From contig NC_134025.1 of the NCBI RefSeq assembly GCF_964204645.1, positions 13,330,001-13,394,000 on the forward strand: a stretch of 64,000 bases of DNA. Reading direction: 5' to 3'. The notes below the pieces were generated by a model, which made no database searches, was not told the DNA's origin, and worked only from the letters and a program-made list of their open reading frames with translations. Shown here one piece after another: positions 16,401-60,929 of the stretch; the first letter of the stretch is position 1, and every line of letters begins with the position of its first letter. The stretch is from Tubulanus polymorphus (Eukaryota; Animalia; Nemertea). The translations under genes and the position numbers were made by a program.

Positions 16401-19400
16401 AAAAAGCACCGATGATATATGTGATAACTTGGAAAATCAATTCGAAAAGTTGGGTGCCACGCCTACAACTAAGGAACATTCTGCATTTCCAAAGTCAGTT
16501 TTGAAGAGCAAGGATTCAACAGCCATTAAGATACTAACGGAAGTCAAAGGAGAAAGACCATCTGTATATCATCCAGGATTGGTAATGAGGAAAAGGAGAT
16601 TGGCCAAAAGCAAAAGGCCGAAGAGTTATCATTTTGATAGACGTATGATTCGAGATTTCGAGGGGGAAAATCACCACGAGGAACAGAGAAAATCATTTTA
16701 TGAACAAGACCTAGCTGCAACACCGGAATATGGAAGAAAAGGCAAGGAATGGACGCCTGCAACAGAAAGTGGAAAAGATCTAGCTGAGAAACAAAGATGT
16801 TCAATTGAGCAATCTTTAGATGTCGCTTCTGGTCAAGCAAACAAACATATATTTTCACTGTCGGGCGATGTTAACAATAGCGCTGTTTCATCCGATGTAA
16901 CGAAACTGGAGCCAATGATGTTGGAAGAAACTCTCGGCACATTCGTAGACCCGCAAACACGCAGCAAGATGAAACTCGCTGATGCGGTCGCCACTAGTTT
17001 GATTGACGGAACGTCGACTAAAGTAAAGACGCCGTCCGGAGGGTCGACAACACTTTCTCAAGCAATTTCTACCGGTATCGTCGATGGCCAATCAGGAAAG
17101 GGGTTTAGTCCATCGACCGGAAAACTGGTTGACTTGTCACAAGCCATTGACTCGGGAGTGGTGAGTACCTATTCGAAACCGAAGATGACGCTGAATGAAG
17201 CCGTTGAACGGGGTCTTTACGATAGTGATGACAATACAATCATCGACCCAAATACTGGTAGCAAAGTAAAATTACTATCGGCCATCTCCGACGGATTGAT
17301 CGACGCCACTTCGTCAGCGATAACTGCATCAGATGGCAGCGTCGTACAATTAAATCGAGCCCTTTCCGATGGTCTTGTCGACGCACACACTGGCAACGTT
17401 ATCGACGAAACTACAGGCAAATCCGTCGCACTGTCGGATGTTCTCACTAATAAACCGGCGACAGTTCCAAAAAACCTAAGTATCGAAGAAGCTATCGAGA
17501 TTGGTGTTTTCGACGCAAAAAGAAACGCATTTATCGATCCATTAACCGGAAAAGATATGACGCTAGCAGAGGCCGTACAACACGGATTGGTCAGCGCTGA
17601 AAGATCACACGTGAAAACATCTGATGGTGATTTCATGACCGTTGGCCGAGCTATTGCAACTGGTAGTATCGACGGCGAAACAGGAATTGTTAACGACCAA
17701 AAGACAGGCCAGGCAGTGTGCCTCGCTGAAGCTGTCTCCAAAGGATTGGTTAGCTCAGTCGAAGCGGTTGTTCCACCACTTAAATCGCTGACCGTCGACG
17801 AAGCAGTAAAAAGGGGTCTTTACGATGAAAAGACCAACACTTTCGTGGACCCCATCAACGGCAGTCGGATGAGTTTGGTTTCGGCTATTACCAGTGGGAA
17901 AATCGACGCGGAGGCGAGCAAAGTAAAAACGCTGACCGGAGACGTGTCACTCAATGAAGCTCTTTCATCCGGAATCGTAGATGCCACAACTGGAAAGGTT
18001 GCCGACCAAACTACCGGACAGATAATTTCACTGTCGGATGCTGTTAACAATGGCGCTGTTTCATCCGATGTTAGGCAACCGGAACCAATGACGTTGGATG
18101 AAGCGCTCGGCAAAGGTATTTACGATGCCAAATCGAACACAGTGATCGATCCAAACAGCGGAAATCGCTTGTCAATCATTGATGCGGTGAAAGAAGGAGT
18201 GATTGACGGAAAATTGAGTAAACTGAAACTGGCAACTGACAGCGATCGGGAAATAAGTCTTCAAGACGTCATTAACACAGGCATGATAGACCCCGATTCC
18301 GGTAAACTGATCGACCCTAACAGTGGACAAGTTATCGATGTCGAGCAAGCATTACAAACAGGCGCGAAACTAGCCGATACAACGCAAGTACGTGGAATTA
18401 CCATTGACGAAGCCATTTCTGCTGGATTGATGGACGGAAACACATTCGTAGATCCACAAACGGGCAGAAAGATGAACCTCGCTGATGCGGTCGCCACTGG
18501 TTTGATTGACGGAATGTCGAAAAAAGTAAAGACGCCGTCCGGAGGGTCGACAACACTTTCTCAAGCAATTTCTACCGGTATCGTCGATGGCTTATCAGGA
18601 AAGGTGTTTAGTCCATCGACCGGAAAACTGGTTGACTTGTCACAAGCCATTGACTCGGGAGTGGTGAGTACCTATTCGAAACCGAAGATGACGCTGAATG
18701 AAGCCATTGAACGGGGTCTTTACGATAGTGATGACAATACAATCATCGACCCAAATACTGGTAGCAAAGTAAAATTACTATCGGCCATCTCCGACGGAGT
18801 GATCGACGCCACCTCGTCAGCGATAACAGCTTCAGATGGCAGCGTCGTTCAATTAAATCGAGCCATTTCCGATGGTCTTGTCGACGCACACACTGGCAAC
18901 GTTATCGACGAAACTACAGGCAAATCCGTCGCGCTGTCGGATGTTCTCACTAATAAACCGGCGACAGTACCAAAAAACCTAAGTATCGAAGAAGCTATCG
19001 AGATTGGTGTTTTCGACGCAAAAAGAAACGCATTTATCGATCCATTAACCGGAAAAGATATGACGCTATCAGAGGCCGTACAACACGGATTGGTCAGCGC
19101 TGAAAGATCACACGTGAAAACATCTGATGGTGATTTCATGACCGTTGGCCGAGGTATTGCAACTGGTAGTATCGACGGCGAAACAGGAATTATTAACGAC
19201 CAAAAGACAGGCCAGGCAGTGTGCCTCGCTGAAGCTGTCTCCAAAGGATTGGTTAGCTCAGTCGAAGAGGATGTTCCACCACTTAAATCGCTGACCGTCG
19301 ACGAAGCAGTAAAAAGGGGTCTTTACGATGAAAAGACCAACACTTTCGTGGACCCCATCAACGGCAGTCGGATGAGTTTGGTTTCGGCTATTACCAGCGG

Positions 19401-22400
19401 GAAAATCGACGCGGAGGCGAGCAAAGTAAAAACGCTGACCGGAGACGTGTCACTCAATGAAGCTCTTTCATCCGGAATCGTAGATGCCACAACTGGAAAG
19501 GTTGCCGACCAAACTACCGGACAGATAATTTCACTGTCGGATGCTGTTAACAATGGCGCTGTTTCATCCGATGTTAGGCAACCGGAACCAATGACGTTGG
19601 ATGAAGCGCTCGGCAAAGGTATTTACGATGCCAAATCGAACACAGTGATCGATCCAAACAGCGGAAATCGCTTGTCAATCATTGATGCGGTGAAAGAGGG
19701 AGTGATTGACGGAAAATTGAGTAAACTGAAACTGGCAACTGACAGCGATCGGGAAATAAGTCTTCAAGACGTCATTAACACAGGCATGATAGACCCCGAT
19801 TCCGGTAAACTGATCGACCCTAACAGTGGACAAGTTATCGATGTCGAGCAAGCATTACAGACAGGCGCGAAACTAGCCGATACAATGCTGGTACGTGGAA
19901 TGACCATTGACGAAGCCATTTCTGCTGGATTGATGGACGGAAACACATTCGTAGACCCACAAACGGGCAGAAAGATGAACCTCGCTGATGCGGTCGCCAC
20001 TGGTTTGATTGCCGGAACGTCGACTAAAGTAAAGACGCCGTCCGGAGAGTCGACAACACTTTCTCAAGCAATTTCTGCCGGTATCGTTGATGGCCAATCA
20101 GGAAAGGTGTTTAGTCCATCGACCGGAAAACTGGTTGACTTGTCACAAGCCATTGACTCGGGAGTGGTGAGTACCTATTCGAAACCGAAGATGACGCTGA
20201 ATGAAGCCGTTGAACGGGGTCTTTACGATAGTGATGACAAAACGATCATCGACCCAAATACTGGTAGCAAAGTAAAATTACTATCGGCCATCTCCGACGG
20301 ATTGATCGACGCCACCTCGTCAGCGATAACTGCTTCAGATGGCAGCGTCGTTCAATTAAATCGAGCCATTTCCGATGGTCTTGTCGACGCACACACTGGC
20401 AACGTTATCGACGAAACTACAGGCAAATCCGTCGCGCTGTCGGATGTTCTCACTAATAAACCGGCGACAGTACCAAAAAACCTAAGTATCGAAGAAGCTA
20501 TCGAGATTGGTGTTTTCGACGCAAAAAGAAACGCATTTATCGATCCATTAACCGGAAAAGATATGACGCTAGCAGAGGCCGTACAACACGGATTGGTCAG
20601 CGCTGAAAGATCACACGTGAAAACATCTGATGGTGATTTCATGACCGTTGGCCGAGCTATTGCAACTGGTAGTATCGACGGCGAAACAGGAATTATTAAC
20701 GACCAAAAGACAGGCCAGGCAGTGTGCCTCGCTGAAGCTGTCTCCAAAGGATTGGTTAGCTCAGTCGAAGAGGATGTTCCACCACTTAAATCGCTGACTG
20801 TCGACGAAGCAGTAAAAAGGGGTCTTTACGATGAAAAGACCAACACTTTCGTGGACCCCATCAACGGCAGTCGGATGAGTTTGGTTTCGGCTATTACCAG
20901 CGGGAAAATCGACGCGGAGGCGAGCAAAGTAAAAACGCTGACCGGAGACGTGTCACTCAATGAAGCTCTTTCATCCGGAATCGTAGATGCCACAACTGGA
21001 AAGGTTGCCGACCAAACTACCGGACAGATAATTTCACTGTCGGATGCTGTTAACAATGGCGCTGTTTCATCCGATGTTAGGCAACCTGAACCAATGACGT
21101 TGGATGAAGCGCTCGGCAAAGGTATTTACGATGCCAAATCGAACACAGTGATCGATCCAAACAGCGGAAATCGCTTGTCAATCATTGATGCGGTGAAAGA
21201 AGGAGTGATTGACGGAAAATTGAGTAAACTGAAACTGGCAACTGACAGCGATCGGGAAATAAGTCTTCAAGACGTCATTAACACAGGCATGATAGACCCC
21301 GATTCCGGTAAACTGATCGACCCTAACAGTGGACAAGTTATCGATGTCGAGCAAGCATTACAGACAGGCGCGAAACTAGCCGATACAATGCCAGTACGTG
21401 GAATGACCATTGACGAAGCCATTTCTGCTGGATTGATGGACGGAAACACATTCGTAGACCCACAAACGGGCAGAAAGATGAACCTCGCTGATGCGGTCGC
21501 CACTGGTTTGATTGACGGAGCGTCGACTAAAGTAAAGACGCCGTCCGGAGAGTCGACAACACTTTCTCAAGCAATTTCTGCCGGTATCGTTGATGGCCAA
21601 TCAGGAAAGGTGTTTAGTCCATCGACCGGAAAACTGGTTGACTTGTCACAAGCCATTGACTCGGGAGTGGTGAGTACCTATTCGAAACCGAAGATGACGC
21701 TGAATGAAGCCGTTGAACGGGGTCTTTACGATAGTGATGACAATACAATCATCGACCCAAATACTGGTAGCAAAGTAAAATTACTATCGGCCATCTCCGA
21801 CGGAGTGATCGACGCCACCTCGTCAGCGATAACTGCTTCAGATGGCAGCGTCGTTCAATTAAATCGAGCCATTTCCGATGGTCTTGTCGACGCACACACT
21901 GGCAACGTTATCGACGAAACTACAGGCAAATCCGTCGCGCTGTCGGATGTTCTCACTAATAAACCGGCGACAGTACCAAAAAACCTAAGTATCGAAGAAG
22001 CTATCGAGATTGGTGTTTTCGACGCAAAAAGAAACGCATTTATCGATCCATTAACCGGAAAAGATATGACGCTAGCAGAGGCCGTACAACACGGATTGGT
22101 CAGCGCTGAAAGATCACACGTGAAAACATCTGATGGTGATTTCATGACCGTTGGCCGAGCTATTGCAACTGGTATTATCGACGGCGAAACAGGAATTATT
22201 AACGACCAAAAGACAGGCCAGGCAGTGTGCCTCGCTGAAGCTGTCTCCAAAGGATTGGTTAGCTCAGTCGAAGAGGATGTTCCACCACTTAAATCGCTGA
22301 CTGTCGACAAAGCAGTAAAAAGGGGTCTTTACGATGAAAAGACCAACACTTTCGTGGACCCCATCAACGGCAGTCGGATGAGTTTGGTTTCGGCTATTAC

Positions 22401-25400
22401 CAGCGGGAAAATCGACGCGGAGGCGAGCAAAGTAAAAACGCTGACCGGAGACGTGTCACTCAATGAAGCTCTTTCATCCGGAATCGTAGATGCCACAACT
22501 GGAAAGGTTGCCGACCAAACTACCGGACAGATAATTTCACTGTCGGATGCTGTTAACAATGGCGCTGTTTCATCCGATGTTAGGCAACCTGAACCAATGA
22601 CGTTGGATGAAGCGCTCGGCAAAGGTATTTACGATGCCAAATCGAACACAGTGATCGATCCAAACAGCGGAAATCGCTTGTCAATCATTGATGCGGTGAA
22701 AGAGGGAGTGATTGACGGAAAATTGAGTAAACTGAAACTGGCAACTGACAGCGATCGGGAAATAAGTCTTCAAGACGTCATTAACACAGGCATGATAGAC
22801 CCCGATTCCGGTAAACTGATCGACCCTAACAGTGGACAAGTTATCGATGTCGAGCAAGCATTACAGACAGGCGCGAAACTAGCCGATACAATGCCAGTAC
22901 GTGGAATGACCATTGACGAAGCCATTTCTGCTGGATTGATGGACGGAAACACATTCGTAGACCCACAAACGGGCAGAAAGATGAACCTCGCTGATGCGGT
23001 CGCCACTGGTTTGATTGCCGGAACGTCGACTAAAGTAAAGACGCCGTCCGGAGAGTCGACAACACTTTCTCAAGCAATTTCTGCCGGTATCGTTGATGGC
23101 CAATCAGGAAAGCTGTTTAGTCCATCGACCGGAAAACTGGTTGACTTGTCACAAGCCATTGACTCGGGAGTGGTGAGTACCTATTCGAAACCGAAGATGA
23201 CGCTGAATGAAACCGTTGAACGGGGTCTTTACGATAGTGATGACAATACAATCATCGACCCAAATACTGGTAGCAAAGTAAAATTACTATCGGCCATCTC
23301 CGACGGAGTGATCGACGCCACCTCGTCAGCGATAACTGCTTCAGATGGCAGCGTCGTTCAATTAAATCGAGCCATTTCCGATGGTCTTGTCGACGCACAC
23401 ACTGGCAACGTTATCGACGAAACTACAGGCAAATCCGTCGCGCTGTCGGATGTTCTCACTAATAAACCGGCGACAGTACCAAAAAACCTAAGTATCGAAG
23501 AAGCTATCGAGATCGGTGTTTTCGACGCAAAAAGAAACGCATTTATCTATCCATTAACCGGAAAAGATATGACGCTAGCAGAGGCCGTACAACACGGATT
23601 GGTCAGCGCTGAAAGATCACACGTGAAAACATCTGATGGTGATTTCATGACCGTTGGCCGAGCTATTGCAACTGGTAGTATCGACGGCGAAACAGGAATT
23701 ATTAACGACCAAAAGACAGGCCAGGCAGTGTGCCTCGCTGAAGCTGTCTCCAAAGGATTGGTTAGCTCAGTCGAAGAGGATGTTCCACCACTTAAATCGC
23801 TGACTGTCGACGAAGCAGTAAAAAGGGGTCTTTACGATGAAAAGACCAACACTTTCGTGGACCCCATCAACGGCAGTCGGATGAGTTTGGTTTCGCCTAT
23901 TACCAGCGGGAAAATCGACGCGGAGGCGAGCAAAGTAAAAACGCTGACCGGAGACGTGTCACTCAATGAAGCTCTTTCATCCGGAATCGTAGATGCCACA
24001 ACTGGAAAGGTTGCCGACCAAACTACCGGACAGATAATTTCACTGTCGGATGCTGTTAACAATGGCGCTGTTTCATCCGATGTTAGGCAACCGGAACCAA
24101 TGACGTTGGATGAAGCGCTCGGCAAAGGTATTTACGATGCCAAATCAAACACAGTGATCGATCCAAACAGCGGAAATCGCTTGTCAATCATTGATGCGGT
24201 GAAAGAGGGAGTGATTGGCGGAAAATTGAGTAAACTGAAACTGGCAACTGACAGCGATCGGGAAATAAGTCTTCAAGACGTCATTAACACAGGCATGATA
24301 GACCCCGATTCCGGTAAACTGATCGACCCTAACAGTGGACAAGTTATCGATGTCGAGCAAGCATTACAGACAGGCGCGAAACTAGCCGATACAATGCCAG
24401 TACGTGGAATGACCATTGACGAAGCCATTTCTGCTGGATTGATGGACGGAAACACATTCGTAGACCCACAAACGGGCAGAAAGATGAACCTCGCTGATGC
24501 GGTCGCCACTGGTTTGATTGACGGAACGTCGACTAAAGTAAAGACGCCGTCCGGAGAGTCGACAACACTTTCTCAAGCAATTTCTGCCGGTATCGTTGAT
24601 GGCCAATCAGGAAAGCTGTTTAGTCCATCGACCGGAAAACTGGTTGACTTGTCACAAGCCATTGACTCGGGAGTGGTGAGTACCTATTCGAAACCGAAGA
24701 TGACGCTGAATGAAGCCGTTGAACGGGGTCTTTACGATAGTGATGACAAAACGATCATCGACCCAAATACTGGTAGCAAAGTAAAATTACTATCGGCCAT
24801 CTCCGACGGATTGATCGACGCCACCTCGTCAGCGATAACTGCTTCAGATGGCAGCGTCGTTCAATTAAATCGAGCCATTTCCGATGGTCTTGTCGACGCA
24901 CACACTGGCAACGTTATCGACGAAACTACAGGCAAATCCGTCGCGCTGTCGGATGTTCTCACTAATAAACCGGCGACAGTACCAAAAAACCTAAGTATCG
25001 AAGAAGCTATCGAGATCGGTGTTTTCGACGCAAAAAGAAACGCATTTATCGATCCATTAACCGGAAAAGATATGACGCTAGCAGAGGCCGTACAACACGG
25101 ATTGGTCAGCGCTGAAAGATCACACGTGAAAACATCTGATGGTGATTTCATGACCGTTGGCCGAGCTATTGCAACTGGTAGTATCGACGGCGAAACAGGA
25201 ATTATTAACGACCAAAAGACAGGCCAGGCAGTGTGCCTCGCTGAAGCTGTCTCCAAAGGATTGGTTAGCTCAGTCGAAGAGGATGTTCCACCACTTAAAT
25301 CGCTGACTGTCGACGAAGCAGTAAAAAGGGGTCTTTACGATGAAAAGACCAACACTTTCGTGGACCCCATCAACGGCAGTCGGATGAGTTTGGTTTCGGC

Positions 25401-28400
25401 TATTACCAGCGGGAAAATCGACGCGGAGGCGAGCAAAGTAAAAACGCTGACCGGAGACGTGTCACTCAATGAAGCTCTTTCATCCGGAATCGTAGATGCC
25501 ACAACTGGAAAGGTTGCCGACCAAACTACCGGACAGATAATTTCACTGTCGGATGCTGTTAACAATGGCGCTGTTTCATCCGATGTTAGGCAACCTGAAC
25601 CAATGACGTTGGATGAAGCGCTCGGCAAAGGTATTTACGATGCCAAATCGAACACAGTGATCGATCCAAACAGCGGAAATCGCTTGTCAATCATTGATGC
25701 GGTGAAAGAAGGAGTGATTGACGGAAAATTGAGTAAACTGAAACTGGCAACTGACAGCGATCGGGAAATAAGTCTTCAAGACGTCATTAACACAGGCATG
25801 ATAGACCCCGATTCCGGTAAACTGATCGACCCTAACAGTGGACAAGTTATCGATGTCGAGCAAGCATTACAGACAGGCGCGAAACTAGCCGATACAATGC
25901 CAGTACGTGGAATGACCATTGACGAAGCCATTTCTGCTGGATTGATGGACGGAAACACATTCGTAGACCCACAAACGGGCAGAAAGATGAACCTCGCTGA
26001 TGCGGTCGCCACTGGTTTGATTGACGGAGCGTCGACTAAAGTAAAGACGCCGTCCGGAGAGTCGACAACACTTTCTCAAGCAATTTCTGCCGGTATCGTT
26101 GATGGCCAATCAGGAAAGGTGTTTAGTCCATCGACCGGAAAACTGGTTGACTTGTCACAAGCCATTGACTCGGGAGTGGTGAGTACCTATTCGAAACCGA
26201 AGATGACGCTGAATGAAGCCGTTGAACGGGGTCTTTACGATAGTGATGACAAAACGATCATCGACCCAAATACTGGTAGCAAAGTAAAATTACTATCGGC
26301 CATCTCCGACGGATTGATCGACGCCACCTCGTCAGCGATAACTGCTTCAGATGGCAGCGTCGTTCAATTAAATCGAGCCATTTCCGATGGTCTTGTCGAC
26401 GCACACACTGGCAACGTTATCGACGAAACTACAGGCAAATCCGTCGCGCTGTCGGATGTTCTCACTAATAAACCGGCGACAGTACCAAAAAACCTAAGTA
26501 TCGAAGAAGCTATCGAGATCGGTGTTTTCGACGCAAAAAGAAACGCATTTATCGATCCATTAACCGGAAAAGATATGACGCTAGCAGAGGCCGTACAACA
26601 CGGATTGGTCAGCGCTGAAAGATCACACGTGAAAACATCTGATGGTGATTTCATGACCGTTGGCCGAGCTATTGCAACTGGTAGTATCGACGGCGAAACA
26701 GGAATTATTAACGACCAAAAGACAGGCCAGGCAGTGTGCCTCGCTGAAGCTGTCTCCAAAGGATTGGTTAGCTCAGTCGAAGAGGATGTTCCACCACTTA
26801 AATCGCTGACTGTCGACGAAGCAGTAAAAAGGGGTCTTTACGATGAAAAGACCAACACTTTCGTGGACCCCATCAACGGCAGTCGGATGAGTTTGGTTTC
26901 GGCTATTACCAGCGGGAAAATCGACGCGGAGGCGAGCAAAGTAAAAACGCTGACCGGAGACGTGTCACTCAATGAAGCTCTTTCATCCGGAATCGTAGAT
27001 GCCACAACTGGAAAGGTTGCCGACCAAACTACCGGACAGATAATTTCACTGTCGGATGCTGTTAACAATGGCGCTGTTTCATCCGATGTTAGGCAACCTG
27101 AACCAATGACGTTGGATGAAGCGCTCGGCAAAGGTATTTACGATGCCAAATCGAACACAGTGATCGATCCAAACAGCGGAAATCGCTTGTCAATCATTGA
27201 TGCGGTGAAAGAAGGAGTGATTGACGGAAAATTGAGTAAACTGAAACTGGCAACTGACAGCGATCGGGAAATAAGTCTTCAAGACGTCATTAACACAGGC
27301 ATGATAGACCCCGATTCCGGTAAACTGATCGACCCTAACAGTGGACAAGTTATCGATGTCGAGCAAGCATTACAGACAGGCGCGAAACTAGCCGATACAA
27401 TGCCAGTACGTGGAATGACCATTGACGAAGCCATTTCTGCTGGATTGATGGACGGAAACACATTCGTAGACCCACAAACGGGCAGAAAGATAAACCTCGC
27501 TGATGCCGTCGCCACTGGTTTGATTGACGGAGCGTCGACTAAAGTAAAGACGCCGTCCGGAGAGTCGACAACACTTTCTCAAGCAATTTCTGCCGGTATC
27601 GTTGATGGCCAATCAGGAAAGGTGTTTAGTCCATCGACCGGAAAACTGGTTGACTTGTCACAAGCCATTGACTCGGGAGTGGTGAGTACCTATTCGAAAC
27701 CGAAGATGACGCTGAATGAAGCCGTTGAACGGGGTCTTTACGATAGTGATGACAAAACGATCATCGACCCAAATACTGGTAGCAAAGTAAAATTACTATC
27801 GGCCATCTCCGACGGATTGATCGACGCCACCTCGTCAGCGATAACTGCTTCAGATGGCAGCGTCGTTCAATTAAATCGAGCCATTTCCGATGGTCTTGTC
27901 GACGCACACACTGGCAACGTTATCGACGAAACTACAGGCAAATCCGTCGCGCTGTCGGATGTTCTCACTAATAAACCGGCGACAGTACCAAAAAACCTAA
28001 GTATCGAAGAAGCTATCGAGATCGGTGTTTTCGACGCAAAAAGAAACGCATTTATCGATCCATTAACCGGAAAAGATATGACGCTAGCAGAGGCCGTACA
28101 ACACGGATTGGTCAGCGCTGAAAGATCACACGTGAAAACATCTGATGGTGATTTCATGACCGTTGGCCGAGCTATTGCAACTGGTAGTATCGACGGCGAA
28201 ACAGGAATTATTAACGACCAAAAGACAGGCCAGGCAGTGTGCCTCGCTGAAGCTGTCTCCAAAGGATTGGTTAGCTCAGTCGAAGAGGATGTTCCACCAC
28301 TTAAATCGCTGACTGTCGACGAAGCAGTAAAAAGGGGTCTTTACGATGAAAAGACCAACACTTTCGTGGACCCCATCAACGGCAGTCGGATGAGTTTGGT

Positions 28401-40400: not shown

Positions 40401-43400
40401 CAACGGCAGTCGGATGAGTTTGGTTTCGGCTATTACCAGCGGGAAAATCGACGCGGAGGCGAGCAAAGTAAAAACGCTGACCGGAGACGTGTCACTCAAT
40501 GAAGCTCTTTCATCCGGAATCGTAGATGCCACAACTGGAAAGGTTGCCGACCAAACTACCGGACAGATAATTTCACTGTCGGATGCTGTTAACAATGGCG
40601 CTGTTTCATCCGATGTTAGGCAACCTGAACCAATGACGTTGGATGAAGCGCTCGGCAAAGGTATTTACAATGCCAAATCGAACACAGTGATCGATCCAAA
40701 CAGCGGATATCGCTTGTCAATCATTGATGCGGTGAAAGAAGGAGTGATTGACGGAAAATTGAGTAAACTGAAACTGGCAACTGACAATGATCGGGAAATA
40801 AGTCTTCAAGACGTCATTAACACAGGCACGATAGACCCCGATGCCGGTAAACTGATCGACCCTAACAGTGGACAAGTTATCGATGTCGAGCAAGCGTTAC
40901 AGACAGGCGCGAAACTAGCCGATACAACGCAAGTACGTGGAATGACCATTGACGAAGCCATTTCTGCTGGATTGATGGACGGAAACACATTCGTAGACCC
41001 ACAAACGGGCAGCAAGATGAACCTCGCTGATGCGGTCGCCACTGGTTTGATTGACGGAACGTCGACTAAAGTAAAGACGCCGTCCGGAGAGTCGACAACA
41101 CTTTCTCAAGCAATTTCTGCCGGTATCTTTGATGGCCAATCAGGAAAGGTGTTTAGTCCATCGACCGGAAAACTGGTTGACTTGTCACAAGCCATTGACT
41201 CGGGAGTGGTGAGTACCTATTCGAAACCGAAGATGACGCTGAATGAAGCCGTTGAACGGGGTCTTTACGATAGTGATGACAATACAATCATCGACCCAAA
41301 TACTGGTAGCAAAGTAAAATTACTATCGGCCATCTCCGACGGAGTGATCGACGCCACCTCGTCAGCGATAACTGCTTCAGATGGCAGCGTCGTTCAATTA
41401 AATCGAGCCATTTCCGATGGTCTTGTCGACGCACACACTGGCAACGTTATCGACGAAACTACAGGCAAATCCGTCGCGCTGTCGGATGTTCTCACTAATA
41501 AACCGGCGACAGTACCAAAAAACCTAAATATCGAAGAAGCTATCAAGATTGGTGTTTTCGACGCCAAAAGAAACGCATTTATCGATCCATTAACCGGAAA
41601 AGATATGACGCTAGCAGAGGCCGTACAACACGGATTGGTCAGCGCTGAAAGATCACACGTGAAAACATCTGATGGTGATTTTATGACCGTTGGCCGAGCT
41701 ATTGCAACTGGTAGTATCGACGGCGAAACAGGAATTGTTAACGACCAAAAGACAGGCCAAGCAGTGTGCCTCGATGAAGCTGTCTCCAAAGGATTGGTTA
41801 GCTCAGTCGAAGCGGTTGTTCCACCACTTAAATCGCTGACCGTCGACGAAGCAGTAAAAAGGGGTCTTTACGATGAAAAGACCAACACTTTCGTGGACCC
41901 CATCAACGGCAGTCGGATGAGTTTGGTTTCGGCTATTACCAGCGGGAAAACCGACGCGGAGGCGAGCAAAGTAAAAACGCTGGCCGGAGACGTGTCACTC
42001 AATGAAGCTCTTTCATCCGGAATCGTAGATGCCACAACTGGAAAGGTTGCCGACCAAACAACCAGACAGATAATTTCACTGTCGGATGCTGTTAACAATG
42101 GCGCTTTTTCATCCGATGTTAGGCAACCTGAACCAATGACGTTGGATGAAGCGCTCGGCAAAGGTATTTACGATGCCAAATCGAACACAGTGATCGATCC
42201 AAACAGCGGAAATCGCTTGTCAATCATTGATGCGGTGAAAGAGGGAGTGATTGACGGAAAATTGAGTAAACTGAAACTGACAACTGACAGCGATCGGGAA
42301 ATAAGTCTTCAAGACGTCATTAACACAGGCATGATAGACCCCGATTCCGGTAAACTGATCGACCCTAACAGTGGACAAGTTATCGATGTCGAGCAAGTAT
42401 TACAGACAGGCGCGAAACTAGCCGATACAACGCCAGTACGTAAATTGACCATTGACGAAGCCATTTCTGCTGGATTGATGGACGGAAACACATTCGTAGA
42501 CCCACAAACGGGCAGAAAGATGAACCTCGCTGATGCGGTCGACACTGGTTTGATTGACGGAACATCGACTAAAGTAAAGACGCCGTCCGGAGAGTCGACA
42601 ACACTTTCTCAAGCAATTTCTGCCGGTATCGTTGATGGCCAATCAGGAAAGGTGTTTAGTCCATCGACCGGAAAACTGGTTGACTTGTCACAAGCCATTG
42701 ACTCGGGAGTGGAGAGTACCTATTCGAAACTGAAGATGACGCTGAATGAAGCCGTTGAACGGGGTCTTTACGATAGTGATGACAATACAATCATCGACCC
42801 AAATACTGGTAGCAAAGTAAAATTACTATCGGCCATCTCCGACGGAGTGATCGACGCCACCTCGTCAGCGATAACTGCTTCAGATGGCAGCGTCGTTCAA
42901 TTAAATCGAGTCATTTCCGATGGTCTTGTCGACGCACACACTGGCAACGTTATCGACGAAACTACAGGCAAATCCGTCGCGCTGTCGGATGTTCTCACTA
43001 ATAAACCGGCGACAGTACCAAAAAACTTAAGTATCGAAGAAGCTATCGAGATTGGTGTTTTCGACGCAAAAAGAAACGCATTTATCGATCCATTAACCGG
43101 AAAAGATATGACGCTAGCAGAGGCCGTACAACACGGATTGGTCAGCGCTGAAAGATCACTCGTGAAAACATCTGATGCTGATTTCATGACCGTTGGCCGA
43201 GCTATTGCAACTGGTAGTAACGACGGCGAAACAGGAATTGTTAACGACCAAAAGACAGGCCAAGCAGTGTGCCTCGATGAAGCTGTCTCCAAAGGATTGG
43301 TTAGCTCAGTCGAAGCGGTTGTTCCACCACTTAAATCGCTGACCGTCGACGAAGCAGTAAAAAGGGGTCCTTACGATGAAAAAACCAACACTTTCGTAGA

Positions 43401-46400
43401 CCCCATCAACGGCAGTCGGATGAGTTTGGTTTCGGCTGTTACCAGCGGGAAAATCGACGCGGAGGCAACCAAAGTAAAAACGCTGACCGGAGACGTGTCA
43501 CTCAATGAAGCTCTTTCATCCGAAATCGTAGATGCCACAACTGGAAAGGTTGCAGACCAAACTACCGGACAGGTAATTTCACTGTCGGATGCTGTTAACA
43601 ATGACCCTGTTTCATCCGATGTTAGGCAACCGGAACCAATGACGTTGGATGAAGCGCTCGGCAAAGGTATTTACGATGCCAAATCGAACACAGTGATCGA
43701 TCCAAACAGCGGATATCGCTTGTCAATCATTGATGCGGTGAAAGAAAGAGTGATTGACGGAAAATTGAGTAAACTGAAACTAGCAACTGACAGCGATCGG
43801 GAAATAAGTCTTCAAGACGTCATTAACACAGGCATGATAGACCCCGATTCCGGTAAACTGATCGACCCTGATAGTGGACAAGTTATCGATGTCGAGCAAG
43901 CATTACAGACAGGCGCGAAACTAGCCGATACAATGCCAGTACGTGGAATGACCATTGACGAAGCCATTTCTGCTGGATTGATGGACGAAAACACATTCGT
44001 AGATCCACAAACGGGCAGCACGATAAACCTCGCTGATGCGGTCACCACTGGTTTGATTGACGGAACGTCGACTAAATTAAAGACGCCGTCCGGAGGGTCG
44101 ACAACACTTTCTCAAGCAATTTCTACCGGTATCGTCGATGGCCAGTCAGGAAAGGTGTTTAGTCCATCGACCGGAAAACTGGTTGACTTGTCACAAGCCA
44201 TTGACTCGGGAGTGGTGAGTACCTATTCGAAACCGAAGATGACGCTGAATGAAGCCGTTGAACGGGGTCTTTACGATAGTGATGACAATACGATCATCGA
44301 CCCAAATACTGGTAGCAAAGTAAAATTACTATCGGCCATCTCCGACGGATTGATCGACGCCACCTCGTCAGCGATAACTGCTTCAGATGGCAGCGTCGTA
44401 CAATTAAATCGAGCCCTTTCCGATGGTCTTGTCGACGCACACACTGGCAACGTTGTCGACGAAACTACAGGCAAATCCGTCGCACTGTCGGATGTTCTCA
44501 CTAATAAACCGGCGACAGTACCAAAAAACCTAAGCATCGAAGAAGCTATCGAGATTGGTGTTTTCGACGCAAAAAGAAACGCTTTTATCGATCCATTAAC
44601 CGGAAAAGATATGACGCTAGCAGAGGCCGTAAAACACGGATTGGTCAGCGCTGAAAGATCACACGTGAAAACATCTGATGGTGATTTCATGACCGTTGGC
44701 CGAGCTATTGCAACTGGTAGTATCGACGGCGAAACAGGAATTATTTACGACCAAAAGACAGGCCAAGCAGTGTGCCTCGCTGAAGCTGTCTCCAAAGGAT
44801 TGGTTAGATCGGTCGAGGCGGTTGTTCCACCACTTAAATCGCTGACCGTCGACGAAGCAGTAAAAAGGGGTCTTTACGATGAAAAGACCAACACTTTCGT
44901 AGACCCCATCAACGGCAGTCGGATGAGTTTGGTTTCGGCTATTACCAGCGGTAAAATCGACGCGGAGGCGAGCAAAGTAAAAACGCTGACCGGAGACGTG
45001 TCACTCAATGAAGCTCTTTCATCCGGAATCGTAGATGCCACAACTGGAAAATTTGCCGACCAAACTACCGGACAGATAATTTCACTGTCGGATGCTGTTA
45101 ACAATGACCCTGTTTCATCCGATGTTAGGCAACCGAAACCAATGACGTTGGATGAAGCGCTCGGCAAAGGTATTTACGATGCCAAATCGAACGCAGTGAT
45201 CGATCCAAACAGCGGAAATCGCTTGTCAATCATTGATGCGGTGAAAGAAGGAGTGATTGACGGAAAATTGAGTAAACTGAAACTGGCAACTGACAGCGAT
45301 CGGGAAATAAGTATTCAAGACGTCATTAACACAGGCATGATAGACCCCGATTCCGGTAAACTGATCGACCCTGATAGTGGACAAGTTATCGATGTCGAGC
45401 AAGCATTACAGACAGGCGCGAAACTAGCCGATACAATGCCAGTACGTGGAATGACCATTGACGAAGCCATTTCTGCCGGATTGATGGACGAAAACACATT
45501 CGTAGATCCACAAACGGGCAGCAAGATAAACCTCGCTGATGCGGTCACCACTGGTTTGATTGACGGAACGTCGACTAAATTAAAGACGCCGTCCGGAGGG
45601 TCGACAACACTTTCTCAAGCAATTTCTACCGGTATCGTCGATGGCCAGTCAGGAAAGGTGTTTAGTCCATCGACCGGAAAACTGGTTGACTTGTCACTAG
45701 CCATTGACTCGGGAGTGGTGAGTACCTATTCGAAACCGAAAATGACGCTGAATGAAGCCGTTGAACGGGGTCTTTACGATAGTGATGACAATACGATCAT
45801 CGACCCAAATACTGGTAGCAAAGTAAAATTACTATCGGCCATCTCCGACGGATTGATCGACGCCACCTCGTCAGCGATAACTGCTTCAGATGGCAGCGTC
45901 GTACAATTAAATCGAGCCCTTTCCGATGGTCTTGTCGACGCACACACTGGCAACGTTATCGACGAAACTACAGGCAAATCCGTCGCACTGTCGGATGTTC
46001 TCACTAATAAACCGGCGACAGTACCAAAAAACCTAAGCATCGAAGAAGCTATCGAGATTGGTGTTTTCGACGCAAAAAGAAACGCATTTATCGATCCATT
46101 AACCGGAAAAGATATGACGCTAGCAGAGGCCGTAAAACACGGATTGGTCAGCGCTGAAAGATCACACGTGAAAACATCTGATGGTGATTTCATGACCGTT
46201 GGCCGAGCTATTGCAACTGGTAGTATCGACGGCGAAACAGGAATTATTAACGACCAAAAGACAGGCCAAGCAGTGTGCCTCGCTGAAGCTGTCTCCAAAG
46301 GATTGGTTAGATCGGTCGAGGCGGTTGTTCCACCACTTAAATCGCTGACCGTCGACGAAGCAGTAAAAAGGGGTCTTTACGATAAAAAGACCAACACTTT

Positions 46401-49400
46401 CGTAGACCCCATCAACGGCAGTCGGATGAGTTTGGTTTCGGCTATTACCAGCGGTAAAATCGACGCGGAGGCGAGCAAAGTAAAAACGCTGACCGGAGAC
46501 GTGTCACTCAATGAAGCTCTTTCATCCGGAATCGTAGATGCCACAACTGGAAAGGTTGCCGACCAAACTACCGGACAGATAATTTCACTGTCGGATGCTG
46601 TTAACAATGACCCTGTTTCATCCGATGTTAGGCAACCGAAACCAATGACGTTGGATGAAGCGCTCGGCAAAGGTATTTACGATGCCAAATCGAACGCAGT
46701 GATCGATCCAAACAGTGGAAATCGCTTGTCAATCATTGATGCGGTGAAAGAAGGAGTGATTGACGGAAAATTGAGTAAACTGAAACTGGCAACTGACAGC
46801 GATCGGGAAATAAGTCTTCAAGACGTCATTAACACAGGCATGATAGACCCCGATTCCGGTAAACTGATCGACCCTAACAGTGGACAAGTTAACGATGTCG
46901 AGCAAGCATTACAAACAGGCGCAAAACTTGCCGATACAATGCAAGTACGTGAAATTACCATTGACGAAGCCATTTCTGCTGGATTGATGGACGAAAACAC
47001 ATTCGTAGATCCACAAACGGGCAGCAAGATGAACCTCGCTGATGCGGTCGCCATTGGTTTGATTGACGGAACGTCGACAAAAGTAAAGACACCGTCCGGA
47101 GGGTCGACAACACTTTCTCAAGCAATTTCTACCGGTATCGTCGATGGCCAATCAGGAAAGGTGTTTAGTCCATTGACCGGAAAACTGGTTGACCTGTCAA
47201 AAGCCATTGACTCGGGAGTGGTGAGTATCTATTCGAAACCGAAGATGTCGCTGAATGAAGCCGTTGAACGGGGTCTTTACGATAGTGATGACAATACGAT
47301 CATCGACCCAAATACTGGTAGCAAAGTAAAATTACTATCGGCCATCTCCGACGGATTGATCGACGCCACCTCGTCAGCGATAACTGCTTCAGATGGCAGC
47401 GTCGTACAATTAAATCGAGCCCTTTCCGATGGTCTTGTCGACGCACACACTGGCAACGTTATCGACGAAACTACAGGCAAATCCGTCGCACTGTCGGATG
47501 TTCTCACTAATAAACCGACGACAGTACCAAAAAACCTAAGCATCGAAGAAGCTATCGAGATTGGTGTTTTCGACGCAAAAAGAAACGCATTTATCGATCC
47601 ATTAACCGGAAAAGATATGACGCTAGCAGAGGCCGTACAACACGGATTGGTCAGCGCTGAAAGATCACTCGTGAAAACATCTGATGGTGATTTCATGACC
47701 GTTGGCCGAGCTATTGCAACTGGTAGTATCGACGGCGAAACAGGAATTTTTAACGACCAAAAGACAGGCCAGGCAGTGTGCCTCGCTGAAGCTGTCTCCA
47801 TAGGATTGGTTAGCTCAGTCGAAGCGGTTGTTCCACCACTTAAATCGCTGACCGTCGACGAAGCAGTAAAAAGGGGTCTTTACGATGAAAAGACCAACAC
47901 TTTCGTGGACCCCATCGACGGCAGTCGGATGAGTTTGCTTTCGGCTATAACCAGCGGTAAAATCGACGCGGAGGCGAGCAAAGTAAAAACGCTGACCGGA
48001 GACGTGTCACTCAATGAAGCTCTTTCATCCGGAATCGTAGATGCCACAACTGGAAAGGTTGCCGACCAAACTACCGGACAGATAATTTCACTGTCGGATG
48101 CTGTTAACAATGGCGCTGTTTCATCCGATGTTAGGCAACCGGAACCAATGACGTTGGATGAAGCGCTCGGCAAAGGTATTTACGATACCAAATCGAACAC
48201 AGTGATCGATCCAAACAGCGGATATCGCTTGTCAATCATTGATGCGGTGAAAGAAAGAGTGATTGACGGAAAATTGAGTAAACTGAAACTAGCAACTGAC
48301 TGCGATCGGGAAATAAGTCTTCAAGACGTCATTAACACAGGCATGATAGACCCCGATTCCGGTAAACTGATCGACCCTGATAGTGGACAAGTTATCGATG
48401 TCGAGCAAGCATTACAGACAGGCGCGAAACTAGCCGATACAATGCCAGTACGTGGAATGACCATTGACGAAGCCATTTCTGCCGGATTGATGGACGAAAA
48501 CACATTCGTAGATCCACAAACGGGCAGCAAGATAAACCTCGCTGATGCGGTCACCACTGGTTTGATTGACGGAACGTCGACTAAATTAAAGACGCCGTCC
48601 GGAGGGTCGACAACACTTTCTCAAGCAATTTCTACCGGTATCGTCGATGGCCAATCAGGAAAGGTGTTTAGTCCATCGACCGGAAAACTGGTTGACTTGT
48701 CACAAGCCATTGACTCGGGAGTGGTGAGTACCTATTCGAAACCGAAGATGACGCTGAATGAAGCCGTTGAACGGGGTCTTTACGATAGTGATGACAATAC
48801 GATCATCGACCCAAATACTGGTAGCAAAGTAAAATTACTATCGGCCATCTCCGACGGATTGATCGACGCCACCTCGTCAGCGATAACTGCTTCAGATGGC
48901 AGCGTCGTACACCTAAATCGAGCCCTTTGCCATGGTCTTGTCGACGCACACACTGGCAACGTTATCGACGAAACTACAGGCAAATCCGTCGCGCTGTCGG
49001 ATGTTCTCACTAATAAACCGGCGACAGTACCAAAAAACCTAAGCATCGAAGAAGCTATCGAGATTGGTGTTTTCGACGCAAAAAGAAACGCATTTATCGA
49101 TCCATTAACCGGAAAAGATATGACGCTAGCAGAGGCCGTACAACACGGATTGGTCAGCGCTGAAAGATCACACGTGAAAACATCTGATGGTGATTTCATG
49201 ACCGTTGGCCGAGCTATTGCAACTGGTAGTATCGACGGCGAAACAGGAATTATTAACGACCAAAAGACAGGCCAAGCAGTGTGCCTCGCTGAAGCTGTCT
49301 CCAAAGGATTGGTTAGATCGGTCGAGGCGGTTGTTCCACCACTTAAATCGCTGACCGTCGACGAAGCATTAAAAAGGGGTCTTTACGATGAAAAGACCAA

Positions 49401-52400
49401 CACTTTCGTAGACCCCATCAACGGCAGTCGGATGAGTTTGGTTTCGGCTATTACCAGTGATAATCTCGACGCGAAGGCGGGCAAAGTAAAAACGCTGACC
49501 GGAGACGTGTCACTCAATGAAGCCCTTTCATCCGGAATCGTAGATGCCACAACTGGAAAGGTTGTCGACCAAACAAAGTTATCTACATCCTTATCTGAAC
49601 CGCATTTCATTACGAATTTTCACCGTGATGGCTCTACTCAGACGGATAGCATTACTCTATTGCCTCTTGTTTCTGACTACATTTCTTTGAAGGAATGTAA
49701 TGATATTGCTGTTCAAACATTTTGTACTGATACTGTATTGGGTCCCTTCTTCGAGGACAAAAACCTCATTGTAACGAGTGATCCTTCGCCCCTTTCCTTA
49801 CGAGGCAATCGGGAACAGTGCGAACAATACCATTATGTCCTGCAAAAAGATACTTTAATTACAAATCTTATCGACGATGCAACCCAAACTGATTTCTCTT
49901 ATACAGATAGCTCGGACGAAAGTGATTTCTTCGATGACGATGAATATGGAAACATTTGTGAAGGATTTAAATTCGAGAACACCAAACTTCAGAATATTGG
50001 TATACAAGCGGATTCGGCATCTACACAAACATTTTCTGTTGACATTAATGCCGCACTTACCAACGATGAAGTCGAAGATTGTGCTCAGGCATACAATCTT
50101 TCTTTGAAAACGGCTTTACGAGAACATAAGCCGGATGAGAATAATGATGGATGTATTGAATTGAGAGCTTATTCCCTTTCGTCTCTTGGCGATTCAGGAA
50201 TGTCTAGTTCTTTTGTGACATCTCATTCTGATATTTCTCGTTCCTCACAGCTGTCTACTTATGACATTAAAGTTAACCCATCAGTCCATCCCCCTTTAAT
50301 TCTGAGTCCCGTTGCTGAAAAGAAAAATGCGCTGGTTTCAGCGAAAAACGCCGCGATGTCTAATGCTGATTGGGGATCATCACATATGACTCCTAATATG
50401 ATGCACTCACTTTCCGAGAGTTCTCCCGAAAATGCGTCCAATGTGGCCATTCTACCTGAAGAAATCATTGCTTCATCTGAATTGACAAAATGTCGTAGCG
50501 AACCAGCATGTGAAAGATCTTGTTCTAAGGAAAAAGTGATAGGAGCTGAGAATTCTTACATATTGCCTGAATACACAGAGAAGACATCTGACGTGGCAGT
50601 GGAAGTATTCATTGAGACGCCGAAAATGTTTCCAGTTGCTACACAGACTGATTTCAATATTGATCCTATTGAATCTCATAATTCCCAAGACGAACTGTGC
50701 GAATCACTAAGTGGTGTCACACGAACAGATGTCAATACGTATATAAAAGATCGTATTCGCGATTCTCACGGGGATTTGTCAGAGTTGGTTCTACTTCCTC
50801 CTGAATATCTTAACGTTGTTGATATCGATGAACTTCTTGGAATGTTAGACGACGACGAATATAATGATAGCCACATTGAAACTCCTGAAATCATGCATGT
50901 TATGTCAATGCCTGACTTGAATGACCTTGATGACGTTGCTGGATTCAAAATAAATCTGACTAATGATCAAAGACCTACTAAGTCGGCCACAATGATTCAA
51001 AAAAGAAAGAAGATTTACTGTGATCTAGATATTCCCAACTATAAATTTGGAGTTGATGGGTTTGACGAACTTAAGGCTGAGCATCGAAGGATGTTAGATT
51101 TATTGAAGAAAACTGAGGCGGACCACCAAATTATGAAAGACAAGCGTGATCAAATTCGTTCGTCACATTCCACGCAACAAAGAACCGATGATGCAGTATC
51201 GCCATCGACGCCATTGTCAAGTTCCAGTAGTCCCGATTCGGTGATACTGTCAGAGAAGTATACTCCACAGAACAGGAATTTCCATATGAAACAAGAACTA
51301 ACCAATGCATTTAGAAAGCCCGATTGTGCAACGGACATTAGACGGACTAATGGATCGTATGAACTCTACAGTGAACATACACGTAATGACACTTATACGA
51401 CGAGCTTCACTGATGGACAGGAAGGTCAACAGCGACAAAGTTGGGAAAACCAAACGTATCCTATTGGAAAAACAGATTTAAATGATGCAGAATCAAACAC
51501 GTCGATGTCTCGAAGATTTAAAACGGTTATGGGTCACATAGAAAGGTCTTCAGATTACCAAAAGAAGCAAAGTACTGGACTGAAAACAGGCATGAACATA
51601 ACATCGAGTGAGCGAACTAGAGAATGGACGAATTATCTTCCCTCTGATAGTTTGTCAATCAAAACTGACAACCAAAAGTTACACGATATGACCAGTAACT
51701 TGGAAGCGGTTTACACCAACCAAAGGAGCAACAATTTTAGTATTGCGGATGGAGTCCCAAGCAACGCTGATGATGTTTGTCAAAATGACCTAGACCAGCA
51801 AGAGGAATTGACTTCAACAAAATCAGAGGCAGATGAAAATATATATGCTAGTCTAGCAAGAAGGTTAATGGAAAGTAAGCAGGCTGATACTAATTTGGGT
51901 ATGGATGATACTATGAGCACGTATGCAGATGACTGCACCCAAACTGGCGATCCTAACGTTGGTTTAGATGAATCAATTGAGACTGATTCAGCAATCCAAA
52001 ACCAGCTGGATAAACTCGTGCAAGAACGGACGCATATAATTGAGTTACTAGGGCATGATTACGCTCCGTCGCGAGTATGGACTGAACTGGTTGAGGCCCA
52101 GTTGAATTATGGCATTGGACAGACCGATTCTTTACTGGAAAGCTTAGACCAATGTGTTGATTTTGATCCTAATTTACTTAGTGGTCGACGAGCACGTACG
52201 GAAGACAATCTTCATATCATTACTAGATCATACCTGTTCGATTATCGACAACGATTAGAAAATTCCAAGAAAGATATTGAAGATCAAATTCAATCATTGG
52301 AGCGAATGAAAAAGAAGAAGCACAAACGGCCATCATTCAATCCTATGAAACTGCGCAGACAACTGCAGTTTGAAGCATTTAAATTAGAAAGAACTCGAAA

Positions 52401-52676
52401 TCAAGTAGTTGAACAAGCAAAAGGGCGAATATTCAATGCACGCATTCGCAGTCACACGTCAACTCCTAGAAGTGATGAATGCGATGATCTGTCAACGACA
52501 ACAGACTCGTTGCATTCAAGGCACGATAGATTTATGAGGCCCCACAACCACGTTGAGTATCTTGTTAACCTTAGACGTTCTCTCGTAGCATCAAGTTTGG
52601 AAAAAGAAAAACCTCAAAGACCTTCACCCAACCAAGGAAACTTAACACCCAAGCGTACTAGCAACAGTCTTGAAAG
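10403..52676 (+). CDS. STARD9: Giant 42,274-bp coding exon: unique N-part, ~32.6-kb plectin-like repeat array, acidic/coiled-coil C-part
   Basis: Lies within the uninterrupted ORF 10369-52707. Acceptor gtttctccacag|AT (phase 1, G+AT=Asp) and donor AG|gtatat (phase 2). ELVEAQLNYGIGQTDSLL (~52084-52137) and HVEYLVNLRRSLV resemble, from memory, conserved blocks in the STARD9 tail. Confidence 0.85.
13030..13310 (+). repeat. Solitary diverged plectin-like module upstream of the array
   Basis: TLLEAVENDLYDETAKTFLDPRTDVKYNLASAITSGLID...LSLKDAMTDGLVDSCSGQVLDQMTGRLISLPVAIERRIV follows the same four-motif pattern as the array modules. Confidence 0.8.
16939..49575 (+). repeat. Coding tandem array, 1503-bp unit (501 aa), ~21.7 copies, plectin/plakin-repeat-like
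   Basis: The same landmark recurs at 17820, 19323, 20826 ... 49383 (22 times, exactly 1503 apart). The motif L-x-E-A-[IV]-x-x-G-L-[YI]-D...D-P-x-[TS]-G is typical of plectin repeats. Confidence 0.95.
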
Positions 52677-52688
52677 GTATATACTTTT

Positions 52689-54083: not shown

Positions 54084-54311
54084 ATCACGCGATTGGGAAC
54101 TAGACTCGTCTATAACAGACTTTTCATTTGGAGACATATCAAACGTCTCGTCACTTCATGATGAACCTATGCGGGTCCTTGAAGCTTGCCAGCGGCAACG
54201 CCTCCAAAGCCAGGCTCAAATTACGGAAGCAAGGGAAAAACTTCGTGACCTGCCACCAGTACTCAGATACAAACGGACGAAAGAAAAATCAAAGTCAGCC
54301 CATTCTTTAAG
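54084..54311 (+). CDS. STARD9: Internal exon, probable coiled coil (LEACQRQRLQSQAQITEAREKLR)
   Basis: Acceptor ttattgtag|A, donor AG|gtgagg. Phase 2 in and out; open frame. Confidence 0.8.
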
Positions 54312-58000: not shown

Positions 58001-58263
58001 TCACCACTACCGACGCAGTACCACCGACTATCTGACACCATTTTCGTCCACCTTTGGACATTCACTTCACCGCACATTCGATGGAAGCGAACGAGATATT
58101 TACACTTTGGGCTTGAATAGTCTTAGTCGGAGTACCTACGCGTTGGCATCAAGCATCAGTCGACCACCATCAGAATACAGAAGTAATAGTAGTGCACGAA
58201 ATGGAAACCACCCATTGCCCAAAATAATGGACTCGGGCAATATTTTCCGTGCTAAAAGCCTAG
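58001..58263 (+). CDS. STARD9: Internal exon (HHYRRSTTDYLTPF...RAKSL); frame continues to a stop at 58380-58382 if the donor is not used
   Basis: Strong acceptor ttttctttcag|T (phase 2). Candidate donor CTAG|gtgacc (phase 1) fits the exon at 60288. Confidence 0.6.
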
Positions 58264-59319: not shown

Positions 59320-59912
59320 TAGGAGGGGGAATATTGAATCACATACAATTTTTCCATTTGTATTGGTAGCTAGGCATATTTTGTTACCATCAGGAGGTGG
59401 TATTCATCTGTGGGTGTTGAAATGCGGTATTACATGGTATTTATCCGTATGGTTTGGTACTTAAACATGTTTAGTTGCCTAAGTTTTTTCTCACCAAAAG
59501 GAGTTAAATTTTGGATTGTATACAATTGTTTATGATTATAATAATATATTGGTACCTAAGCATATTTCGTTTTTCATATTTTGTTGCCAAAAATCAATTG
59601 CAGAGTTGTTGTTCATGACATGCTCTATGATAATGGCGAGTTTCAGTCGTTAGTTCCAGTTGAAAACACCAGGGGGCGTTGAATAGCGAAATAATATTGC
59701 ATTTATTACATACATATTGGTACATATTTTCATACATAATTTGTGACGACAATCAATTGCAAAATTCTAGGTCTTGACAAGGTTCTCTGCTTCGTGCCGA
59801 GTTTCAAGCGCATTGATTGCTGTATTTGTTCATTAGGGGGTGGGGTGTTAATATTGAAATTGTCAGATTGTTAAGCATTTCACCAAGAGGGCATGGTGTC
59901 CCTGGACCCCTA
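59320..59912 (+). mobile_element. Diverged 3' part of HINE-like element
   Basis: Degenerate subrepeats (caccagggggcgttgaata at ~59667) and end gggcatggtgtccctggaccccta. Confidence 0.7.
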
Positions 59913-60830: not shown

Positions 60831-60929
60831 GTGAGTGCGGTTGCTAATTGTTGGCCGTAGTGTTTTTAACACTTCACTGTTATCCAACTTTTGTCACTAT
60901 TATCTCAATTTTCATTCTCTTTTACCCAG

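Follow-up and report, generated by a model that had tools for sequence, protein, structure and literature searches.

A recently amplified array of plectin-type modules within a predicted 42-kb exon of a likely nemertean STARD9 gene

The DNA described here, 64,000 nucleotides (nt) of the nemertean Tubulanus polymorphus (contig NC_134025.1, positions 13,330,001 to 13,394,000; hereafter the window), is dominated on its + strand by a tandem array of 21.7 units of 1,503 bp (16938..49575) that lies within a frame of 14,113 codons without stop (10366-52707; open reading frame scan of the window). Each unit encodes 501 amino acids (aa) that form five diverged modules, A to E, and the frame contains a predicted giant coding exon of 42,274 nt (10403..52676, + strand) with a pyrimidine-rich AG acceptor, a GT donor, and phases matching those of its neighbours. 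The gene to which this exon belongs is likely the STARD9 of this animal, and a gene for a related START domain follows on the same strand.

Comparison of the DNA with itself, a check proposed in an earlier sequence-only reading of the window, is indeed dominated by one offset: 15-mers recur at 1503 bp (25,876 matches) or at multiples of 1503, and identity at this lag is 0.96-1.00 across 17001-48000 and 0.23-0.38 elsewhere. The period is exact from 16938 to ~49575, and pairs among the 20 complete units show 2-59 differences per 1503 bases, a mean identity of 98.1%, and no indels. The 154 variable sites across units are arranged as mosaics, with the least divergence among central-left units and the most among those at the 3' end. 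The array comprises ~109 modules in total, 2 of them partial, and the frame has a further 3,200 aa outside the repeats; Tandem Repeats Finder, with a longest period of 500, misses it. The 1,503-bp/501-aa repeat of the sequence-only reading thus stands, as do the five module starts that it quoted (they recur at 501-aa steps or multiples of these), but its 22 copies amount to 21.7, and its starting point is that of the unit array and leaves out a 78-bp remnant on the 5' side. This remnant (16860..16937, + strand) consists of the end of a module D and the start of a module E fused to the body of a module A: 64/78 bases are identical on the D/E diagonal, and at 16938 the match leaves that diagonal for the one of module A. 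The fusion is, judging from this alignment, the scar of a recombination between modules. Reverse-strand frames of 154-200 aa that recur with the unit were taken as shadows of the coding strand.

In a representative unit (25915..27417, + strand), modules A to E occupy 25915-26205, 26206-26496, 26497-26808, 26809-27108, and 27109-27417 and measure 97, 97, 104, 100, and 103 aa, respectively. They align with one another at 28-47% identity, compared to 98.1% between units, which agrees with the earlier proposal of an old divergence of the modules followed by a recent amplification of the pentamer. Third codon positions are only 25-43% identical between modules, i.e., near saturation, and the preservation of a hydrophobic and glycine pattern over this distance argues for selection at the protein level before the amplification. 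Helix motifs within a module are spaced by ~27/26/27 aa, with 17-24 aa to the next module and a mean of 25 aa; this spacing of four motifs, as previously proposed, is present in all five modules, with a degenerate fourth motif in two of them, B and E. Unit and module alignments together establish a three-level hierarchy of motif, module, and pentamer in an open frame. BLOSUM autocorrelation peaks at lags 27, 99, 103, and 200 (-0.14 to -0.27, with -0.40 for the best of 30 shuffles sampled at every fifth lag). Upstream of the array, the giant exon also contains a solitary diverged module Z (13036..13335, + strand; 27-46% identity to modules A-E) and a second, degenerate one (13489..13704, + strand; E 1.7e-6 with the module hidden Markov model, HMM).

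Known carriers of plectin repeats are the plakins and spectraplakins. A single unit of the array scores 161 bits against the Pfam family Plectin (PF00681; cut-off 20.5), and its best stretch aligns to profile positions 12-34 of 39, which fits the earlier observation that the motif is shorter than the 38-aa plectin repeat. Five of the six sequence matches of the unit in the PDB are plakin repeat domains (PRDs), and a protein search with the unit, which covered proteins of 878-2,505 aa, returned 55 matches of 23-34% identity that all contain PF00681. Every informative named match is Shot/DST/MACF-like, including a DST of Mytilus, a MACF-like protein of Brachionus, and a crab protein whose cluster includes a MACF1 model. 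A profile comparison with such invertebrate Shot/dystonin-type proteins had been suggested before, and an HMM built from the window's modules indeed detects full modules in 55/55 matches, with runs at a regular spacing of 97-103 aa in P0001, P0002, P0004, P0005, P0013, P0022, and others. By these profile matches, the array module is the ~100-aa, four-motif type of plectin repeat found in invertebrate Shot/dystonin proteins; its presence in Shot/DST/MACF-like proteins implies that it is old and was not invented by this array, so that the ~25/100-aa organisation described earlier is real but not special to the array. What distinguishes the array is instead its homogenisation, given that exact internal 20-mer repeats occur in 2/62 stored proteins and long-period ones in 0/62. 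The six modules of the window are mostly mutual best matches and cluster on a module tree (3 changes compared to 5.9 after shuffling, 0/500). According to Roper and Brown (PMC2173965), a 10,497-nt exon of Drosophila Shot encodes 33 repeats that retain a hairpin and the first helix, have lost the second helix, and are judged unlikely to build the 4.5-repeat globule, in agreement with the observations on the array.

The structural models likewise place domain borders at the 100-aa period, as had been expected. An AlphaFold model of module D of the representative unit, computed from an alignment of 6 window modules, reaches a predicted local distance difference test score (pLDDT) of 77.5 and a predicted template modelling score (pTM) of 0.60 and comprises four short helices with hairpins, the canonical second helix being missing. 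The model of the whole unit (20 sequences, among which rotated units stayed in register and added no depth) shows five beads at a pTM of 0.33, with dips in confidence at the linkers (residues 91-100, 181-190, 291-300, and 391-400). Each module is thus predicted to fold alone as four hairpin-helix motifs, with flexible linkers between the beads. The canonical plakin repeat, according to sections of PMC4782060, has 38 aa forming a hairpin and two antiparallel helices. In the earlier suggested comparison with desmoplakin PRDs, the top six Foldseek rows are indeed plakin repeats (desmoplakin, periplakin, and envoplakin), but the overall fold does not superpose (E>=0.01, template modelling (TM) score 0.23-0.25, root-mean-square deviation (rmsd) 11-15 A), and a wide structure search with the predicted module found 0/48,161 chains at Z>=2. 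The local motif is shared with plakin repeats and the packing is predicted to differ; absence of a structural counterpart is no proof of a new fold.

The array is also present in an independent individual and is no assembly artefact. For run X5, which stems from another sample and study and of which ~12% of the raw reads were compared to a reference of 7400-18440 containing one unit, depth is 222 on the unit (3 bins) and 7.7 on unique flanks (20 bins), a ratio of ~29, and the head-to-tail joint between units is crossed by 25 reads. The difference between 22 and ~29 copies may reflect polymorphism, GC bias (48% vs 40%), or under-assembly. The four-gamete test is violated by 531/2,080 informative-site pairs, a result that together with the fusion at the E/A border is compatible with unequal crossing-over and gene conversion; indeed, it is because of the mosaic variants and this scar that we attribute multiplication of the pentamer to unequal exchange. 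A joint of run X3 at 10751-17020 was ruled out as an intron by its AA..CT ends.

Our model of the host gene begins with a Lys/Ser/Pro-rich coding exon of 470 aa that is open at the 5' edge of the window (1..1409; no Pfam family, phase-2 GT donor) and is tied to the giant exon by inferred splice phases only. It continues with a predicted small exon with AG/GT sites and matching phases (1829..1926, phase 2 to phase 1), the giant exon, a predicted exon at 54084..54311, and a predicted last exon (58001..58382) that ends in TAA, all on the + strand. The last three modelled exons translate with a single terminal stop at 58382, and one contig of the spliced run X8 begins to align at 57999, next to the acceptor predicted at 58001, after 50 letters that do not align.

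Only 386 bp separate this stop from the ATG of a START-domain gene (58769..63412, + strand) that lies ~6 kb downstream of the giant exon and has its own first exon. Its exons are identical to the 337-aa START protein XP_074648391.1 of T. polymorphus, its three GT-AG introns are spliced in one X8 contig, and it likely represents a detached C-terminal domain of STARD9. Single START exons find nothing in Pfam and only chance matches in the PDB. An exhaustive search with the START protein gave 714 matches; among the 149 listed besides the query, 23 exceed 3,400 aa, and the matches include 22 proteins of 3,500-6,500 aa with a C-terminal START. One match of this search, the salmon epiplakin P0187, is spurious and repeated, and it was excluded from the STARD9 set and the START tree. 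We note that P0064, P0076, P0088, and P0134, mostly unnamed, have 3-5 START domains in tandem that resemble the STARD9 type, and that START is also a stand-alone model (314-352 aa) in Lineus longissimus. A fission of STARD9 in nemerteans and an unfused ancestral state are both possible.

Of the same 149 listed proteins, 22 additionally gave tblastn matches to the final 200 codons of the giant exon, and 20 of these 22 are among the 23 longest. The shared segment is a STARD9-type tail motif and predicted coiled coil (51886..52467, core 52003-52146, + strand) on which tblastn, HMM, and pairwise matches agree: an HMM from 23 STARD9-like proteins finds the modelled tail at E 1.1e-10 with 0/200 shuffles reported at E<=10, and the pairwise match to frog STARD9 has E 5e-8. 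This motif was defined here from those 23 proteins, and we found no Pfam family for it. Two weaker STARD9-like motifs follow in the same order, one at the end of the giant exon and one in the exon at 54084..54311 (8.8 bits, E 0.07). Among ten proteins looked up, six are named STARD9 and a seventh is via a cluster member; the hemichordate, amphioxus, and sea urchin models are unnamed. Scanned STARD9-like proteins have START in 10/10 cases and a kinesin domain in 4/10, some deuterostome models being without a motor. Pfam matches to RAMA and ATP-gua_PtransN stayed below cut-off. Because the tail motifs and an adjacent, related START occur together, we consider it quite likely that the host gene is the nemertean STARD9. 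STARD9, as portrayed in sections of PMC10203878, is a kinesin of lysosomes that has 4,700 aa, carries FHA and START domains, and shows a lysosomal dileucine signal as a further trait.

Taken together, we assign a probability of roughly 60% to the reading that the locus holds an array of pentamers of old plectin-type modules in the predicted 42-kb exon of a likely STARD9 gene, with ~109 beads serving as an acidic spacer or tether. An ancient entry of a Shot-type module into the middle exon of STARD9 would have been followed by its spread and its divergence into Z and A-E, under selection at the protein level, after which unequal crossing-over and gene conversion would have multiplied and mixed the pentamer, as in epiplakin. 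Translation would yield a chain of ~109 predicted small folded beads with flexible linkers that, assuming 3-4 nm per bead, could part the N-terminal region from the tail coiled coil by several hundred nanometres. Such spacing by a long acidic chain is most likely its function, and the chain may additionally offer many identical low-affinity binding sites for multivalent contacts with a partner. A bolder and more tentative version, which we would not bet on as a whole, is that a STARD9-type kinesin captured a cytoskeleton-binding module of spectraplakins and raised it to ~110 copies within one 42-kb exon, in a tail of >1.5 MDa whose length varies between individuals, with START split off as a gene of its own and the module being an unsolved four-hairpin-helix fold that is also the real structural unit of the plakin-repeat region in invertebrate Shot proteins.

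Several observations weigh against the favoured reading. The match to the STARD9 tail extends over only ~70 aa at 25-40% identity and resembles a coiled coil, and the HMM training proteins were chosen by a regular expression derived from the same tblastn result. A word-based homology search with the C-terminal region of the giant frame passed 0/944 candidates and an ESM Atlas search gave no usable match, but both are insensitive, as they missed the STARD9 match that was found via the START gene. No kinesin or FHA domain lies within the window, past whose 5' edge the gene continues. START is annotated as its own gene in Tubulanus and Lineus, the modelled giant gene stops at 58382, and an X8 contig covers the START gene's own first exon. 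In a FastTree of 142 START domains (the query and the 141/148 matches of sufficient length), both nemertean sequences fall into a broad STARD9 group (support 96) but outside the deuterostome STARD9 clade. RNA support within the window consists of the START introns and the one contig at the predicted 58001 acceptor; no contig links the 58001 exon to the START exons, at a coverage too thin for this to carry weight, and runs X7 and X6 gave no contigs on 56700-64000. A search of sequencing runs listed no RNA run containing 49300-52700, a result without bearing on expression. As to scope, no other protein combined the two features: the module profile finds plectin-type modules in 0/48 STARD9-like proteins of a mostly deuterostome set that includes isoforms, the STARD9 tail profile conversely finds 0/61 module-bearing proteins (best E 0.59-0.65), and 78/141 forks of a quick module tree are open, so that it names no donor.

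The main rival shares the same history and differs on present function alone: the pentamer would have grown by unequal crossing-over in a length-tolerant STARD9 linker, near neutrality and with selection only for an open frame. We rate it as distinctly less probable than a spacer, but as a serious contender. It gains from the substitutions themselves, since 51/156 distinct changes among units are synonymous compared to 43 expected (p 0.10 after transition/transversion correction; ratio of nonsynonymous to synonymous polymorphism, pN/pS, 0.66) and some fall on conserved Gly and Asp positions. Constraint on residues since the amplification finds no significant support in this weak synonymous excess, which also counts against the favoured reading. 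The variable length of STARD9-like proteins (3,500-6,500 aa) and a read depth that suggests another copy number in another individual point the same way. On the other side stand the complete lack of stops (0 vs ~4 expected) and indels among these substitutions and across the 32.6 kb of the array, which indicates that the frame is being kept open, as well as the pattern kept by modules A-E before amplification.

An epiplakin-like role, in which the array would bind intermediate filaments multivalently and thereby anchor both the protein and whatever cargo it carries in the filament network, seems improbable to us. The plectin-family motif, the plakin repeat domains in all six top Foldseek rows, and the same genetic architecture in EPPK1 (one exon whose C-terminal domains are near-identical and vary in number, in excerpts of PMC9563781 and PMC8782857) would be compatible with it, but those structural matches are poor and the model lacks the second helix. 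Furthermore, intermediate-filament binding by canonical domains uses a basic groove, as stated in part of PMC4782060, and the whole 501-aa unit has a net charge of -27.

It is very improbable that this animal's spectraplakin (Shot/dystonin/MACF) is the host gene and that the giant exon is its plakin-repeat exon, recently amplified inside. The informative named matches of the unit and the 10.5-kb plakin-repeat exon of Drosophila shot (in the portion of PMC2173965 that describes it) would suit this view, and the sequence-only reading had proposed a comparison along these lines. For the host gene, that comparison failed: neither the flanks of the frame nor 12 candidate frames contain plakin, spectrin, CH, EF-hand, or GAS2 domains (Pfam, window only), and the end of the giant exon matches STARD9. 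The unit is only 23-34% identical to Shot-like proteins, and starred branches of the module tree join none of the window's modules to a module of Shot. It is just as hard to credit that internal splicing skips the array from the mature mRNA or that assembly created it, even if a 42-kb internal exon is extreme and no transcript over the array was seen, given the high copy depth and junction reads in independent data, the 154 variable sites in mosaics, the stops and indels that an untranslated sequence should have gathered, and a frame that is open on both sides of the array.

If true, the massive amplification of plectin repeats in a gene of STARD9 type would clearly exemplify the capture of a domain by a giant exon that tolerates changes in length, and it would be an independent parallel, several times larger, to the intragenic copy-number variation of epiplakin. 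The folding of Shot's short repeats that lack the second helix was left open by Roper and Brown (PMC2173965), and the spacing observed here sets a ~100-aa unit of four motifs; as the module model is confident and has no solved counterpart, a small recombinant module could answer this question. The locus also lends itself to studying the definition and translation of an exon of 42 kb. Our literature searches showed no description of this locus, and a full-text search found no paper pairing STARD9 with a plectin repeat, most subscription papers lying outside the coverage of both.

Other features of the window concern the giant exon and its surroundings. At 10900-15270, the exon contains ~17 occurrences of a degenerate Trp-centred motif (hydrophobic-W-S/T-x-D-G; no Pfam match) that is often followed by I-E-x-E-Y-like residues and is possibly a second, older repeat family. 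Intronic tandem repeats of 154/130 bp at 2989-3592, 6967-7381, and 53690-53935 belong to a high-copy dispersed family, related pieces of which lie near 59400-59900 and 62700. Two copies of a dispersed element with a (CGTC)n microsatellite (2377-2780 and 52690-53180) were found, the second of which starts directly after the donor of the giant exon and supplies the apparent stop of the frame. A high-copy element at 8187-8857, with an X5 depth of 2,000-3,000 and many loose ends, is likely a short transposon, and 56019-56568 comprises ~550 bp of (TA)n broken by a short duplicated segment. Among STARD9-like models, P0156 (Diadema setosum, 6,453 aa) and P0238 (Lampetra planeri, 6,594 aa) are enlarged, the former with an exact internal repeat of 99-aa period that is unlike the plectin module; the middle exon of STARD9 may generally be prone to repeat growth.

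Compared to known systems, the gene resembles vertebrate and deuterostome STARD9 models (P0131, P0125, P0087, and P0113, with a kinesin-3 type motor, FHA, and C-terminal START) in its tail motif, which lies towards the end of a long middle region of poor conservation, in the order of the further motifs, and in the related START that comes next. It differs in a middle region of at least 14,000 aa, compared to 3,000-5,000 aa in STARD9, in ~110 plectin-type modules that none of the 48 STARD9-like proteins has, and in a START that is apparently a separate gene here and in Lineus, in a window without a kinesin head. With invertebrate spectraplakins (Drosophila Shot and the DST/MACF-like proteins of Mytilus, Portunus/Scylla, and Cryptotermes), the array shares a motif of hairpin plus first helix only, in several homologues also the ~100-aa four-motif spacing, and in the case of Shot the location of repeats in one large exon (described in a passage of PMC2173965). 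In contrast to the array, their modules are all old and diverged, exact internal 20-mers being limited to the two proteins mentioned above, and lie between plakin and spectrin domains, neither of which was found in this window.

The PRDs of vertebrates (desmoplakin 1LM5/1LM7/5DZZ, envoplakin 4QMD, periplakin 4Q28, and plectin 2N03) share the local hairpin-helix motif but have steps of 38 aa instead of ~27/26/27/17-24 aa, and our models contain one helix per motif. A canonical PRD is one ~190-aa globule of 4.5 repeats with a basic groove, whereas the array is predicted to place four motifs in each ~95-aa bead (pLDDT 77.5) of an acidic unit, with an overall fold that does not superpose (TM score ~0.24). 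Epiplakin, finally, is similar in its single coding exon with plectin-family repeats in near-identical, copy-variable tandem domains (according to parts of PMC9563781 and PMC8782857), and salmon epiplakin P0187 has exact repeats of 318/326 aa. However, EPPK1 consists of 9-17 canonical domains of 4.5 x 38 aa and nothing else, whereas here ~109 non-canonical modules, each of 4 x ~25 aa, lie within an unrelated gene that has flanking exons and, in the same frame, 3,200 aa outside the repeats. The relation is one of analogy and not of orthology. The array thus seems to behave genetically like epiplakin and to be built from the module of Shot while belonging to neither family, in a host gene that is probably STARD9.

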